A DNA stretch of 5,503 nt from Candidatus Woesearchaeota archaeon (GCA_964468425.1 CAYXSZ010000038.1:1-5503); one strand, 5' to 3'; shown: positions 476-5,503, counted from the first letter of the stretch. A program made the numbers and translations. Notes: generated by a model from the letters alone, not told the origin.

Positions 476-1069
476 CTAGTTAGAATATGATGATGGCGAT
501 CCAGTCCGAGCTGTGAAGACTCCTTTAAGTGCTGATGATGATGGACGAAAACTCAGATTACATGAAGAGGGACCAAAACTCTGATCTAATTTAATCCTCA
601 ACGCCAGGTATATAGATTTTAATATAATTCTCATTCTATAGCGTACATTTTCTCTAGAAGACCCATCGTAAAGTTGGATTGTAGCGTTGTTAGTGTATAC
701 TTTAGTTTTTGTTGCATAGCCGAATTTCAATTTGTCAACAATCGTATTCACACTTAGTTCGCACGAGGATGGATAGTATTTACCTAAAACCCATAATATT
801 CTGTCTTCGTACTTTAACGAAATCGCGACCTTCCACTCGTATCCGCTTCGATTAAGAACGTGTAATTCCAAGGAATTTCCTTGCAAGTGATCTAGAATGC
901 TTTCTAGAATACCTACACACCTTCTAGTGTTTTCGAGTTTATAGCAATCTCCGTCCAGAATTCTTTCCAGGCACCTTCTCGCGATGTGCGTTACGTTGAC
1001 ACTAATAGAATTCACGACGAGGTAATCGTTCATAGGTTCTTTCTCTCCTCCTTGCTGGAGCTGCTGCAT
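476..1069 (-). CDS. Hypothetical protein, 197 aa (possibly 185 aa from the ATG at 1033)
   Basis: This is the only long ORF in the region. It starts 28 nt downstream of the primase stop on the same strand, so it is probably co-transcribed. I recognise no family motif. An internal ATG at 1031-1033 is preceded by AGGAGG (1047-1052), but with a long 13-nt spacer, so the start is ambiguous. The last ~36 codons (Ser/Pro-rich tail SFGPSSCNLSFRPSSSALKGVFTARTGSPSSYSN) are antisense to the two C/D sRNA units and may not be genuinely coding. Confidence 0.55.
   Translation of the reverse strand: MQQLQQGGEKEPMNDYLVVNSISVNVTHIARRCLERILDGDCYKLENTRRCVGILESILDHLQGNSLELHVLNRSGYEWKVAISLKYEDRILWVLGKYYPSSCELSVNTIVDKLKFGYATKTKVYTNNATIQLYDGSSRENVRYRMRIILKSIYLALRIKLDQSFGPSSCNLSFRPSSSALKGVFTARTGSPSSYSN
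487..535 (+). ncRNA. C/D box sRNA, unit 1 (2'-O-methylation guide)
   Basis: Box C ATGATGA (487-493), 12-nt guide TGGCGATCCAGT, box D' CCGA (506-509), 4-nt loop GCTG, box C' TGAAGA (514-519), 12-nt guide CTCCTTTAAGTG, box D CTGA (532-535). This is the canonical archaeal layout with both spacers exactly 12 nt. The D guide is complementary to the conserved 16S ACUUAAAGGA segment. Confidence 0.75.
535..584 (+). ncRNA. C/D box sRNA, unit 2 (directly abuts unit 1)
   Basis: Box C ATGATGA (535-541, sharing A535 with the D box of unit 1), 12-nt guide TGGACGAAAACT, box D' CAGA (554-557), 5-nt loop TTACA, box C' TGAAGA (563-568), 12-nt guide GGGACCAAAACT, box D CTGA (581-584). Confidence 0.7.
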
Positions 1070-1097: not shown

Positions 1098-2468
1098 TTA
1101 AGCTTTACTGTCCTCTTTGCTTTTGTATAGTTTCAACTTCTTTATCGGGTATGAGATAGGGTTTTTAACAAGTTTGCAAATTTCGTCCGGCTGGCAAACT
1201 CCCATGTCCTTGTAATATCCCTCGTTTGAGCAGTTTGGTGGGAGATACTTCAATCCTTTATTGTATTTATCTTTATGCCAGCTTATTTGATACTCGATGT
1301 ATCTTTCCCTCAATGGATCTGGGTTATTTTCGTTCCAGTTATTTAATTCTCTTTCAATTTCATCCCATCCCCATCCAAGATTGTACAGGAAATTTATTAA
1401 GATGAATACAGCCCTCTTTCGCCCATCCTCCACTCCTTCCAAAATGTTTTTTATGCAAGGAGGAAAATACTCTTTGGGAACTTTTCCTTTAAATTTAGCT
1501 TTGGATCTTTTGATATCTTTTTCGATCTCCTGCTCTAAACTCGCCTTGATTTGAGTAGTTTTTATTCTTTCTTGTTCCAAGGAGTTCCTAACACTCCATA
1601 TGATTGCTTTTCTAAAGAGCTTGGCAACGTTTTTGTCTTCTTCCAAGTTGTCTGGAAGAAATTCGATCCCCTCGTATGTGTAATAGCCCAGATCAGCGAC
1701 TTCTGGATTGAAGCTTAAAACACTTTCTTTTCGAATTGGAACTGATAACCTCTCTGTTTTCTCATTGATCGAATAGGGCATTCTGATTAAATGTCTAGAT
1801 GAAATTAGAATGGTGTCTATTTCGATTATGTGAAAAGGCGAGAACTTTTCAGGGAGAATATCTAAGTTGTTTTCTCTGATTAGTTCTTCAATTCCAAAAT
1901 TTATTTCGATATATCTTCTTAGATCTTTTTCGATTTGAGAGGCTATGTAAGAAGCGACGATCCTTGCAAGCTCTGGAAATAAATTTTTAGTTTCTTCTTC
2001 AGCTATTTCTTCTTTTTTAAAGATTTTTACTTTTTTCGGTAAAGTTTCCCATGGAATGAAGATGTGAAATCCCTTACCACCGGAGTATTTAATATAAACG
2101 TTTTTAATTTCGTTATTTTCTAGGAACTTGAGGATTAAATAAGCTGTATATTTAGAAATGTCGAAGTTCTTTGAATCCAGGTCGATTACGAAGTCCCATC
2201 CAATGCGTAGATCATTCAGCTCTCTTTTTTTTAATTTAGTTGAGAGTTGTAGCGGGTTTATCCAGCGTTCAACGGACATATGAAATGAGATAGCTCCTTT
2301 TTTAACTAGTTCGAGGATATCTCCTTCGTTTTCGAGAGTATAAGGTCTCTTTCCGAAGCCTCCATTTTCAAACATGTATCCTACCTCTCGATTGATCGAG
2401 ATTCGAACCATTTCTTCGAGAATTTCGGGATTTTTTTTGTAAAATGCGAGAAGCTTTGTTTTTAGCAT
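1098..2468 (-). CDS. priS: DNA primase, single-chain fusion of a PriS (AEP catalytic) domain and a PriL-type Fe-S C-terminal domain
   Basis: AEP motif I is GWDFVIDLD (D96/D98, nt 2175-2183). Motif II is SGGKGFHIF (aa 129-137). Motif III is IEID(218)...SSRHLIRMPYSINEKT. After a charged linker (aa ~296-330) comes a PriL-CTD-like region: FPPC(338)IKNIL...YQISW...YLPPNC(413)...GVC(425)QPDEIC(431). These four Cys are the only cysteines in the protein. Confidence 0.9.
   Translation of the reverse strand: MLKTKLLAFYKKNPEILEEMVRISINREVGYMFENGGFGKRPYTLENEGDILELVKKGAISFHMSVERWINPLQLSTKLKKRELNDLRIGWDFVIDLDSKNFDISKYTAYLILKFLENNEIKNVYIKYSGGKGFHIFIPWETLPKKVKIFKKEEIAEEETKNLFPELARIVASYIASQIEKDLRRYIEINFGIEELIRENNLDILPEKFSPFHIIEIDTILISSRHLIRMPYSINEKTERLSVPIRKESVLSFNPEVADLGYYTYEGIEFLPDNLEEDKNVAKLFRKAIIWSVRNSLEQERIKTTQIKASLEQEIEKDIKRSKAKFKGKVPKEYFPPCIKNILEGVEDGRKRAVFILINFLYNLGWGWDEIERELNNWNENNPDPLRERYIEYQISWHKDKYNKGLKYLPPNCSNEGYYKDMGVCQPDEICKLVKNPISYPIKKLKLYKSKEDSKA
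1134..1481 (-). other. PriL C-terminal (4Fe-4S cluster) domain-like segment inside the primase CDS
   Basis: Covers aa ~330-445. It has the PPC motif plus three further Cys (C338, C413, C425, C431; codons span nt 1176-1457), with spacing and context typical of the PriL-CTD iron-sulfur domain. Confidence 0.75.
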
Positions 2469-2543: not shown

Positions 2544-2615
2544 GCGCCGGTCGTCTAGCGGCTAGGATACGGGCCTTCCAAGCCCGTGACCCGGATTCGA
2601 ATCCCGGCCGGCGCA
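2544..2615 (+). tRNA. tRNA-Gly, anticodon UCC
   Basis: Hand-folded cloverleaf of 72 nt. Acceptor stem GCGCCGG/CCGGCGC with discriminator A2615. D arm GUCU/AGGAU with loop AGCGGCUA. Anticodon stem CGGGC/GCCCG with loop CUUCCAA (anticodon TCC at 2577-2579). Variable loop of 4 nt (TGAC). T arm CCGGA-TTCGAAT-CCCGG. No CCA is encoded and there is no intron. Confidence 0.95.
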
Positions 2616-2686: not shown

Positions 2687-4000
2687 ATGGTAGATATCGT
2701 TGTTGGGAGAGATATGGATGATTTGGAAAAATTCGGACTTTTTGGGACAATTTTTATTGGAAAGGAATATATTAAAATGGAAAACATTCTTTCTCTTGCG
2801 AATAGAGTGTACTTAGATGTTAATAAGCCTCATCTCATTTTGATTTGCGGGAAGCGAGGACAAGGAAAATCGTATACGCTAGCTTCTGTTGCTGAAAGCA
2901 TTGCAATGCTTCCAAAAGATCTTGCAAACAACGTTTCTATCTTGATTTTTGATACTATGGGTATTTTTTGGACTATGAAGTTTCCCAACTATAGAGACGC
3001 CGAACTCCTAGAACGCTGGGGACTTAAACCCCAAGGGCTAAAAAACACACGAGTCCTGGTCCCAGAAGGGCTCGTGGACCTTTATAAGGATATCGATATT
3101 CCTCTGGATGACGTTTTTACGTTAAATCCTTCAGATCTTTCTGGATTCGAGTGGAGCTTAGTTTTTAACCTGGATCCGACCTCACCCATAGCCATTTATA
3201 TTCAAAAACTGGTAAGGAATTTTAAGCAGAGAGAAAGTTTGTTTTCTCTTGAAGAGTTCATTAGATATGTTGAGACTAAAAATCTTGATCCAAAAATCAG
3301 GGACGCTATCGTTAATTACTTTGAGAGCGCAATTGATTGGGGGTTGTTCTCCGAAAATGCTCCGAGAATCAAAAGTCTTGCTAGACCGGGATTCGTTAAC
3401 ATTCTAGATGTCTCAATGTACACAGCTCTAACCGGTGGATGGTCTGTAAAGAACTTAGTCATTGGTCTAGTTTCCAAAAAACTTTTCTATGAGAGAATGT
3501 TATTTAGAAAGAAGGAAGAGCTGGAGGAAGCTCATCTAGGTTATGAAGTAAGGGAGAGGGAATTTCCCTTGATTTGGATTATGATTGATGAAGCTCACGA
3601 GTGTCTTCCTCTAAAGGAAGTTACGCCAGCAACAGAACCCCTGATTCAAATTATTAGAGAAGGACGCCAACCTGGTATAACGTTGGTTTTAGCTACTCAA
3701 CAACCGGGAAAAATTCATACAGATGTTATAACCCAGTCGGATATAGTGATAGCTCATAGAGTTACAGCTCAGCGAGACTTAAAAGCTCTGAATGAGATCA
3801 TGAAAAACTTTTCAGCTCAAGATATCGAGGTTTACATGAACGAAAACCTTCCAAAGAGAAAAGGAGCTGCGCTGATTTTGGATGATAAATCTGAAAGAAT
3901 TTATCCTGTTCAAATGAAGCCAAGAGTCTCTTGGCACGGTGGACAAGATCCTACACTAATTAGGAAGCGAATATGGCTCGAGGAGTTGCGAAGCAGGTAG
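2687..4000 (+). CDS. HerA/FtsK-superfamily P-loop ATPase (HerA/DUF87-like), with a short N-terminal domain
   Basis: Walker A is GKRGQGKS (aa 55-62, nt 2849-2872). Walker B is IWIMIDEAH (aa 296-304, nt 3572-3598). The LVLATQQPGKIHTDVITQSDIVIAHRVT block matches the ATQRP...Q(S/C)(D/N)...R signature of HerA-clade ATPases. A C-terminal KPRVSWHGG motif is present. No TM segments are seen. Confidence 0.85.
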   Translation: MVDIVVGRDMDDLEKFGLFGTIFIGKEYIKMENILSLANRVYLDVNKPHLILICGKRGQGKSYTLASVAESIAMLPKDLANNVSILIFDTMGIFWTMKFPNYRDAELLERWGLKPQGLKNTRVLVPEGLVDLYKDIDIPLDDVFTLNPSDLSGFEWSLVFNLDPTSPIAIYIQKLVRNFKQRESLFSLEEFIRYVETKNLDPKIRDAIVNYFESAIDWGLFSENAPRIKSLARPGFVNILDVSMYTALTGGWSVKNLVIGLVSKKLFYERMLFRKKEELEEAHLGYEVREREFPLIWIMIDEAHECLPLKEVTPATEPLIQIIREGRQPGITLVLATQQPGKIHTDVITQSDIVIAHRVTAQRDLKALNEIMKNFSAQDIEVYMNENLPKRKGAALILDDKSERIYPVQMKPRVSWHGGQDPTLIRKRIWLEELRSR

Positions 4001-5503
4001 AGGGCGCTCTCGCCATTGCGATCTACGTGATGTTTTTGCTATTCTTCCTAGCAGCTGTGAAAATAAAAGTAATTGACGTTGTGAACGAAAACCAAAAGTA
4101 CGAGAACAAGGTTTACCTGGTTGATTACGCGCTTTCAAGAATCGAAGAGCCTTATTATGTTATTACCCTTAGCGCGAGCATTCCAAAAGCTACTAGAAAT
4201 TATATGTGTAATTTATCAGATCCCGACCTCAAAAGGGATTTCTGCACAAAGTTTCCAATCTACTTTCCTTTGAATTTATCTTCTCTCGTGTCGAATAGCG
4301 GGGTCGTAAACGGAACTCCGGATTCTTACTATGATCCAAAGGATGGATTGTTTTTTTACGCAAACTTTTCAACCTTCACCAGTTGCAAGGAGGGAGACAA
4401 GGTAATTGTTCAAATATACAATCCTAACTCATATAGATTACAAGATTATCAGGTTTTCATATCCTCTCCAACAATAAAAGAGTGGTTATCGGCGGGAAAT
4501 CACTTATACATCGTCGACGAAAATGGAAGAACGCATAGCTTTTGCTATCATCACAGCAACTTCGTTTGCAACGCTACTCCGAAGGGTGCATATGGGATTT
4601 GGGTTAAATTAAGCATCAATCCATTTTCCTCCCTGAATTTAACAATTGAAAAAGTATCGAACTCAAATGAAGAGGAAGTTGACGGTTCAAGAATCTTTGA
4701 TTTTTATGACCATTTTACTTACGAGAATGTTAACGATCTTCTAAAAGTGTGGTCTGCGCAATCCTTATCCTGCCAGAGAATATCGGATACGGAGTGGAGA
4801 TGTAAAAGTATTGGTGTTATAAAGAGAAGGAGAAATTCGATATTATACACAAAATCATCCTACGTAAATAAAGATCAGGGTTATACCATTTATTTTAAGT
4901 TGAGAAACAATGCATATTATGATGAAGGATACGGATTAAACGATTACATTGGTGTGGGGGCCTTAAAAGGTAGCATTTTAACTATTTTAGCTAAGGCAAA
5001 GTTCTACGATAACAATTTTTTACTCTTTAATGTGAATGTCGATGAAAATAGCAAGATTCTCGTATACGACAAAGATTATAGGTTCCTTGACAACTACTTG
5101 AATTTTACGATAGATTATGTAATCGTTAAAAAACAAGCGGATTTGGAACCAGTTGTAACGATCGTCCAGGATGGGGAAGAATGCAAAAGAAACTATGAGG
5201 TTGTTGTTGGAAGGCATATCAAGTGGGTTCATCTAGGAAGCTTCCTTGTTTACGATGAAGATAATTTATTACTTAAATACAAAGGATTTTCGAATAGATT
5301 CCTAAGATTTTACTTATACCATTGTACGTGGTGGGGTTGTAACTATAACATTTTGAAAGATTCTTTAAGAAATTTCGATTACTTTTCCTCTCTTTTTTTC
5401 ATAAACAGAAAGAACTCTCCCAATAGCTATGACGGAACAATAAAGAGAAACAACGTATCCATTTACTACGAGGACAGAGACTCCTACACAGAGAGGTATA
5501 TGC
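3973..5503 (+). CDS. Large N-terminally membrane-anchored, Cys-rich, probably glycosylated surface protein (3' end outside the window; at least 510 aa)
   Basis: I checked this frame codon by codon and found no stop from ATG 3973 to the window end. TAG at 3961-3963 closes the frame just upstream, so 3973 is the first possible start. It is absent from the ORF track because it has no stop. The N-terminus is MARGVAKQVEG followed by the hydrophobic stretch ALAIAIYVMFLLFFLAAV. The rest is hydrophilic and beta-rich, with 10 Cys and 8 N-X-S/T sequons. It overlaps the ATPase gene by 28 nt. Confidence 0.8.
   Translation, partial: MARGVAKQVEGALAIAIYVMFLLFFLAAVKIKVIDVVNENQKYENKVYLVDYALSRIEEPYYVITLSASIPKATRNYMCNLSDPDLKRDFCTKFPIYFPLNLSSLVSNSGVVNGTPDSYYDPKDGLFFYANFSTFTSCKEGDKVIVQIYNPNSYRLQDYQVFISSPTIKEWLSAGNHLYIVDENGRTHSFCYHHSNFVCNATPKGAYGIWVKLSINPFSSLNLTIEKVSNSNEEEVDGSRIFDFYDHFTYENVNDLLKVWSAQSLSCQRISDTEWRCKSIGVIKRRRNSILYTKSSYVNKDQGYTIYFKLRNNAYYDEGYGLNDYIGVGALKGSILTILAKAKFYDNNFLLFNVNVDENSKILVYDKDYRFLDNYLNFTIDYVIVKKQADLEPVVTIVQDGEECKRNYEVVVGRHIKWVHLGSFLVYDEDNLLLKYKGFSNRFLRFYLYHCTWWGCNYNILKDSLRNFDYFSSLFFINRKNSPNSYDGTIKRNNVSIYYEDRDSYTERYM
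4006..4059 (+). other. Predicted single transmembrane anchor / uncleaved signal of the surface protein
   Basis: An 18-residue uninterrupted hydrophobic stretch (aa 12-29), preceded by R3/K7 and followed by K30/K32. No other comparably hydrophobic segment occurs in the remaining 480 aa visible. Confidence 0.7.

Follow-up and report, generated by a model that had tools for sequence, protein, structure and literature searches.

The window, a 5,503-bp stretch of DNA that forms one whole contig, very probably carries the cellular replicative primase of its host, encoded as a single-chain archaeo-eukaryotic primase (AEP) in which a PriS-type catalytic domain is followed by a PriL-type Fe-S domain. 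The contig belongs to a 475-kb genome in 96 contigs that is ~70% complete, and the names attached to the closest homologs suggest that the host is an uncultivated nanoarchaeon of the family Nanopusillaceae. The assignment draws on the identity of the domains, the conservation of individual residues, the predicted fold, the single copy of the gene and the lack of a separate priL. Script translation of the minus strand gives an intact reading frame of 456 codons without interruption. The initial annotation described the primase exactly in every detail but left the strand unstated; it is the minus strand (Table 1).

Table 1. Coordinates of the fused primase gene and its predicted functional elements within the window.
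Feature	Coordinates	Strand	Details
Fused PriS-PriL primase CDS	1098..2468	-	ATG at 2468, TAA at 1098-1100; 456 aa
AEP catalytic (PriS-type) domain, aa 1-275, Cys-free	1644..2468	-	Pfam PF01896, model pLDDT >90, VIA-align
AEP motif I FVIDLD, aa 93-98	2175..2192	-	D96 and D98, predicted metal ligands; equivalent to NEQ395 D87/D89, essential there
AEP motif II SGGKGFH, aa 129-135	2064..2084	-	S129 and H135, equivalent to NEQ395 S119 and H125
AEP motif III and nucleotide-binding stretch IEIDTILISSRHLIR, aa 215-229	1782..1826	-	D218, R225, H226, R229
Long helical linker, aa 279-325	1494..1634	-	DSSP helices 279-294 and 296-325
PriL C-terminal (Fe-S) domain, aa 330-456	1101..1481	-	Includes R350/R352/F355 at 1404-1421
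Cys338 codon, predicted [4Fe-4S] ligand	1455..1457	-	Equivalent to NEQ395 C289; invariant
Cys413 codon, predicted [4Fe-4S] ligand	1230..1232	-	Equivalent to NEQ395 C364; invariant
Cys425 codon, predicted [4Fe-4S] ligand	1194..1196	-	Equivalent to NEQ395 C376; 60/61 sequences
Cys431 codon, predicted [4Fe-4S] ligand	1176..1178	-	Equivalent to NEQ395 C384; invariant

Profile searches identify both halves of the protein. Pfam PF01896 (PriS) matches aa 103-245 with 35.4 bits against a cut-off of 26.8 (E 1.8e-8), and Pfam PF04104 (PriL) matches aa 297-415 with 48 bits against a cut-off of 22.4 (E 1.4e-12). NCBIfam PriL models align aa 281-444 with profile positions 179-341 of 348 (E 1.3e-16), and the C-terminal segment is thereby placed in the PriL C-terminal domain (PriL-CTD), as first proposed. 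A search of a large protein collection retrieved more than 1400 homologs of similar length, with named members from Nanopusillaceae, Nanopusillus, Nanoclepta, Nanobdella, Woesearchaeota, Nanoarchaeota and Aenigmarchaeota. The primase match is not due to chance, because the Pfam and NCBIfam scores stand above noise, homologs are this numerous, and a set of residues is invariant among them. The layout of PriS domain, helical linker and PriL-CTD recurs in 61 aligned homologs, and the fused primase is the type carried by all nanoarchaea and by related tiny-celled archaea.

The catalytic signature of the N-terminal domain is complete. The AEP motifs annotated there are found at the residues given, namely DLD at 96-98, SGGKGFH at 129-135, D218, and RH at 225-226 together with R229. 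In terms of the general three-motif AEP pattern (hhhDhD/E, sxH and hD/E), the protein presents FVIDLD at 93-98, GFH at 133-135 and ID at 217-218. Six residues (D96, D98, H135, R225, H226 and R229) are invariant in the 61-sequence alignment, and D218 is kept in 60 of the 61 homologs. The region of motif III was also aligned with residues 313-366 of human PriS in a sequence search of solved structures.

Structural modeling leads to the same domain. An AlphaFold2 model built from the 61 homologs (mean pLDDT 92.4) shows an alpha/beta domain to residue ~275, followed by helices and a small helical domain. In VIA-align comparisons the catalytic domain adopts the AEP (prim) fold, with Z 16.2, rmsd 3.5 and 230 aligned residues to P. 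horikoshii PriS (1v33_A), Z 15.2 to S. solfataricus PriS (1zt2_A) and Z 15.7 to human PriS. Between 201 and 230 of the ~330-346 residues of canonical PriS proteins superpose on the window domain, so that PriS-specific elements such as a helical insert and a C-terminal domain probably have no counterpart here.

The top structural matches among 48,161 representative PDB chains are, however, Prim-PolC (Z 20.1) and LigD polymerase domains (Z 17-18); PriS follows at Z 15-16, and Foldseek ranks the N-terminal domain in the same order, with LigD-type chains before PriS. This ranking could mean that the domain is a repair polymerase of the LigD/Prim-PolC type that serves in end joining or gap filling, and Pfam LigD_Prim-Pol (PF21686) matches 36 of the 61 family members, with a score for the window protein of 26.8 bits that falls just under the cut-off of 27.4. 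We nevertheless consider a repair polymerase highly improbable. The PriS profile passes its cut-off here and matches 57 of the 61 members; the domain is fused to the PriL Fe-S domain, on which PriS depends to initiate; and the homolog NEQ395 of Nanoarchaeum equitans makes RNA primers de novo (PMC10250227), which speaks against a role in repair only. LigD polymerase domains and Prim-PolC, NHEJ-type AEPs of bacteria and archaea, consist like the window domain of a compact AEP core that has neither zinc nor helical inserts and give the highest Z (17-20), but they lack a PriL-type domain and are repair rather than replicative polymerases. The resemblance, which persists in structure despite the sub-threshold LigD profile score, probably stems from a bare AEP core devoid of the zinc and helical inserts of canonical PriS.

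The zinc element of PriS is missing from the window protein, as initially annotated. A residue count over the whole protein finds no cysteine in aa 1-337, and only four histidines occur in the same segment: H63, H135 and H226 occupy positions that are essential in NEQ395, and H213 is scattered. In the AlphaFold model the DxD strand (93-99) runs directly into a helix (102-118). A structural zinc motif near the active site is typical of canonical PriS, although it does not define all AEPs (Boudet 2015, PMC4434180). No cysteine is conserved in the PriS part of the 61 aligned homologs; 60 of them contain zero to four scattered, non-conserved cysteines in this part, the remaining one (P0048) has eight, and N. 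equitans has none. The missing zinc motif thus characterizes the entire family rather than the window protein alone. The argument uses cysteine and histidine content together with the model, because the PDB search with the family profile reached only P. abyssi PriL and fragments of eukaryotic PriS and yielded no alignment at residue level over the zinc-motif region.

The segment that connects the two domains, annotated as a Lys/Glu-rich helical linker, contains 20 Lys or Glu among its 64 residues (271-334) and is modeled as two consecutive helices. When residues 279-456 were modeled alone (mean pLDDT 95.3), the linker appeared as a single helix spanning positions 2-48. At the profile level, it aligns weakly with the PriL segment immediately upstream of the Fe-S domain.

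Beyond the linker, the hallmarks of PriL-CTD were all recovered as annotated: FPPC at 335-338, YQISW at 393-397, PPNC at 410-413, GVC at 423-425 and DEIC at 428-431. The protein has four cysteines in total (338, 413, 425 and 431), all within this C-terminal segment. The closest solved structure by sequence is P. abyssi PriL (9f26_B, E 3.8e-8), and the match extends through FPPC and PPNC...C...C...NP. Only the C-terminal half of the full-length PriL profiles aligns. Profile positions 1 to ~178, which cover the N-terminal docking domain, remain unaligned, in keeping with the annotated lack of a PriL N-terminal domain, and the full-length model NF002589 and its relatives score 61 bits, far under the equivalog cut-off of 339.

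Fold comparison of the C-terminal domain points in the same direction. With the model of residues 279-456 as query, VIA-align ranks S. solfataricus PriX (5of3_C) first of 48,161 chains, with Z 7.8 over 97 aligned residues, then yeast PriL-CTD (6di2_A), with Z 7.5 over 121, and third human PRIM2C (Z 6.4); the ranks below these match the linker helix alone. For this model Foldseek returned a list dominated by PriL chains at non-significant E values of 0.4-1. The fold evidence for this domain is moderate, and the modeled similarity backs up the strong sequence evidence rather than standing alone. Modeling and structural comparison, envisaged earlier as a check, yield an AEP domain, a helical linker and a PriX/PriL-CTD-like domain (pLDDT 92-95).

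Whether four conserved cysteines signify an iron-sulfur cluster deserves separate consideration. A metal is not visible from sequence, and the residues could instead bind zinc or form disulfides, with the C-terminal domain acting as a structural helix bundle only. The fold itself can exist without a cluster, as in PriX (PMC5700102), and Cys-to-alanine mutants of NEQ395 are still active in vitro, so the cluster is not needed for catalysis. Yet the four cysteines align one-to-one with C289, C364, C376 and C384 of NEQ395, where a single Cys mutation abolishes the brown color and the absorbance at 410 nm (PMC10250227), and three of them are invariant, with the fourth lacking from just one of the 61 homologs. 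A domain with no [4Fe-4S] cluster is accordingly very unlikely, and the four residues are best read as putative cluster ligands.

The window primase is the ortholog of NEQ395 (L015:1027-2208, minus strand; 393 aa), with 39% identity over 439 alignment columns (E 4e-93). Fifteen of the 16 positions that were mutated in NEQ395 (Table 2 of Schneider 2023, PMC10250227) are identical in the window protein; the sixteenth, K122, which the authors call less conserved, was left out of scoring. The correspondence covers H58, S119, H125, D194, H202 and R205 of NEQ395, which equal H63, S129, H135, D218, H226 and R229 here and include the motif III residues D218, H226 and R229. It also covers D87/D89 (D96/D98), R301/R303/F306 (R350/R352/F355) and the four cysteines listed in Table 1. 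In both proteins a PriS-type domain devoid of cysteine is joined through a long linker helix to a PriL Fe-S domain that contains four cysteines, and both are encoded by a single-copy gene in a tiny genome.

NEQ395 is well characterized. Schneider, Bergsch and Lipps (2023, PMC10250227) purified it as a brown monomer with a [4Fe-4S] cluster that synthesizes ~9-nt RNA primers at triplets with a central T, and they proposed it as a minimal AEP model. AlphaFold and RoseTTAFold models in that study show the long linker helix; 16 positions were mutated and the linker length was varied. The separated domains do not complement each other in trans, a shortened linker leads to aborted primers of 4-5 nt, and lengthening of the linker lowers activity (PMC10250227). 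By homology to this 39%-identical enzyme, primase activity, [4Fe-4S] binding and a comparable primer length may be expected of the window protein.

A working mechanism can be outlined on the same basis. The N-terminal AEP domain would hold the template and the elongating NTP, with H63, S129, H226 and R229 binding the nucleotide. D96, D98 and D218, as predicted metal ligands, would support phosphodiester formation together with H135. The C-terminal PriL-type domain, tethered by the long helix, would bind the initiating nucleotide and the 5'-primer end through R350, R352 and F355, and this second site would enable de novo dinucleotide synthesis. The geometry of the tether may help to keep the product to a short RNA primer, and Cys338, Cys413, Cys425 and Cys431 would hold the [4Fe-4S] cluster. 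The covalent link between the domains would replace the PriL N-terminal domain, which docks PriL onto PriS in two-subunit primases.

Comparison with canonical primases places these features in context. PriS-PriL heterodimers of P. abyssi (9f26), S. solfataricus (1zt2) and human (4rr2) display the same AEP motifs and fold and the same four cysteines in PriL-CTD. In contrast, the window protein is one chain, without the PriL N-terminal domain and without the Cys/His zinc motif that follows the DxD strand.

Genome searches found no second source of either subunit. The genome of the window contains one PriS match and one PriL match, both inside the fused gene. PF04104 matches exactly once, in the fused gene, in all 19 family genomes, of which three are single-contig and closed. 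The search for a stand-alone priL found none in the genome of the window (~70% complete) or in 18 relatives from the family, including the three closed ones. Absence of a priL gene or another AEP from the genome itself rests partly on these relatives, given its ~70% completeness. The full-length PriL profile, applied to the genome of the window, the three closed relatives and N. equitans, reached only the C-terminal half of the fused gene, apart from one weak extra match (G000:C47, E 0.01, profile positions 63-170). A PriL N-terminal domain at that locus was considered and rejected, and the hit was attributed to chance; the ORF starts with a GIDEAGRG motif, which we take to indicate RNase HII, and the closed relatives yielded no such second N-terminal match.

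An archaeal DnaG homolog is also encoded in this genome (396 aa; G000:C35:3594-3773; locus L016:1009-2199, minus strand), identified by NF003108 with 432 bits against a cut-off of 300. DnaG is present in most archaea, where it is usually tied to the exosome. The fused AEP primase thus coexists with a TOPRIM-type protein, and the fused enzyme cannot be asserted to be the sole primase from sequence alone.

The surroundings of the gene show little that is stable across relatives. An ORF of 197 aa (476-1069, minus strand) lies 28 bp downstream of the primase stop and matches nothing in Pfam, NCBIfam or PHROG. Conservation does not extend to a same-genus relative, in which only the last ~24 codons match and the stretch overlapped by this matching end is located at a distance of ~65 nt from the stop codon of the primase. 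The reading frame may have been inserted in this lineage only, or it may be spurious; its candidacy as a conserved partner gene of the primase was rejected on account of its lack of conservation in that relative. On the other side, a tRNA-Gly (TCC) gene (2544-2615, plus strand) is divergently oriented at a distance of 75 bp from the start codon of the primase. In 11 relatives and in N. equitans, no tRNA-Gly neighbor occurs up to 1.5 kb away from the primase gene. Since neither the ORF nor the tRNA-Gly gene is kept in the relatives compared, the primase has no conserved operon partner.

Further along the window, a HerA/FtsK-type P-loop ATPase of 437 aa (2687-4000, plus strand) is recognized by the Pfam DUF87/HerA central domain (E 2.8e-9). 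The next long ORF (3973-5502), which is open at the contig end, starts before the ATPase gene ends. Weak profile matches of the ATPase include Zot, the large subunit of phage terminase and the DNA-translocation ATPases CedB and CedD.

The Zot-like and terminase matches of this neighbor, on a contig of only 5.5 kb, raise the question of whether the primase could belong to a plasmid, a virus or an integrated element rather than to the chromosome. Fusions of PriS-like and PriL-like domains do occur on mobile elements. PolpTN2 of the Thermococcus nautilus plasmid pTN2 (Gill 2014, PMC3973330) likewise joins, within a single chain, a PriS-like domain at the N-terminus to a PriL-like one at the C-terminus. 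Unlike the window primase, it is plasmid-borne and of independent origin, and its authors call it a DNA primase/polymerase. Raymann 2014 raised spread through integrative elements as one possible origin of the fused form, but detected no sequence resemblance of PolpTN2 to the fused primases of nanoarchaea (PMC3914693). The neighbor of the window gene is a tRNA-Gly gene and no integrase was seen. A full-length homolog is present in all 41 genomes sampled from the class, with alternative PriS and PriL genes absent. A mobile origin is largely refuted, because the primase is single-copy and universal in the class, and we regard the probability of a plasmid- or virus-type primase-polymerase as close to negligible. 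A chromosomal replicative primase remains the preferred interpretation.

The window protein was initially presented as a minimal primase, a description that does not hold, as NEQ395 with its 393 aa is 63 residues shorter. The differences lie in three places: the linker from F270 to F335 comprises 64 residues here and 41 in NEQ395; between motifs II and III, the insert comprises 73 against 59; and the C-terminal helix after the last conserved NP motif has ~19 residues against 3. In sequence alignment the helix coincides with the C-terminus of P. abyssi PriL. Linkers measure 64-70 residues in the closest, Nanopusillaceae-type homologs and 42-60 in the remaining ones, compared with 41 in NEQ395, so that the Nanopusillaceae type exceeds other fused primases by ~15-25 residues.

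Some homologs from other orders depart further from a compact form. P0048 carries a 140-residue insert with eight cysteines between motifs II and III, and C-terminal tails of 58-91 residues extend beyond the Fe-S domain in P0060, P0065, P0084 and P0086. Some lineages have thus elaborated on the 'minimal' architecture of the fused primase.

A longer linker might change primer length, because shortening in NEQ395 alters it and lengthening lowers activity. It is conceivable, though rather unlikely, that the linker variation of the Nanopusillaceae type and the retained PriL-like C-terminal helix set another primer length or dock a replisome partner.

The fused primase type has been known since 2005. 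A passage of Raymann 2014 (PMC3914693) credits Iyer 2005 with noting the fusion of a PriS catalytic domain with a PriL Fe-S domain in N. equitans, and the same paper extends it to other nanosized archaea. Dombrowski 2020 (PMC7414124) treats the fused primase as a synapomorphy of Undinarchaeota and DPANN cluster 2. The initial annotation was right to point to N. equitans, but the novelty it implied is not sustained in view of that published synapomorphy. Fe-S content, priming, a structural model and use as a minimal model have all been published for NEQ395, and the fused primase in the window opens no new question on its own. Its presence places the metagenome-assembled genome among the lineages marked by the fused primase and adds one more natural variant of a studied model enzyme. 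That priming can proceed without the PriS zinc motif already follows from the activity of NEQ395, and the Cys-free, zinc-less catalytic domain found across the family is a useful reminder of this.
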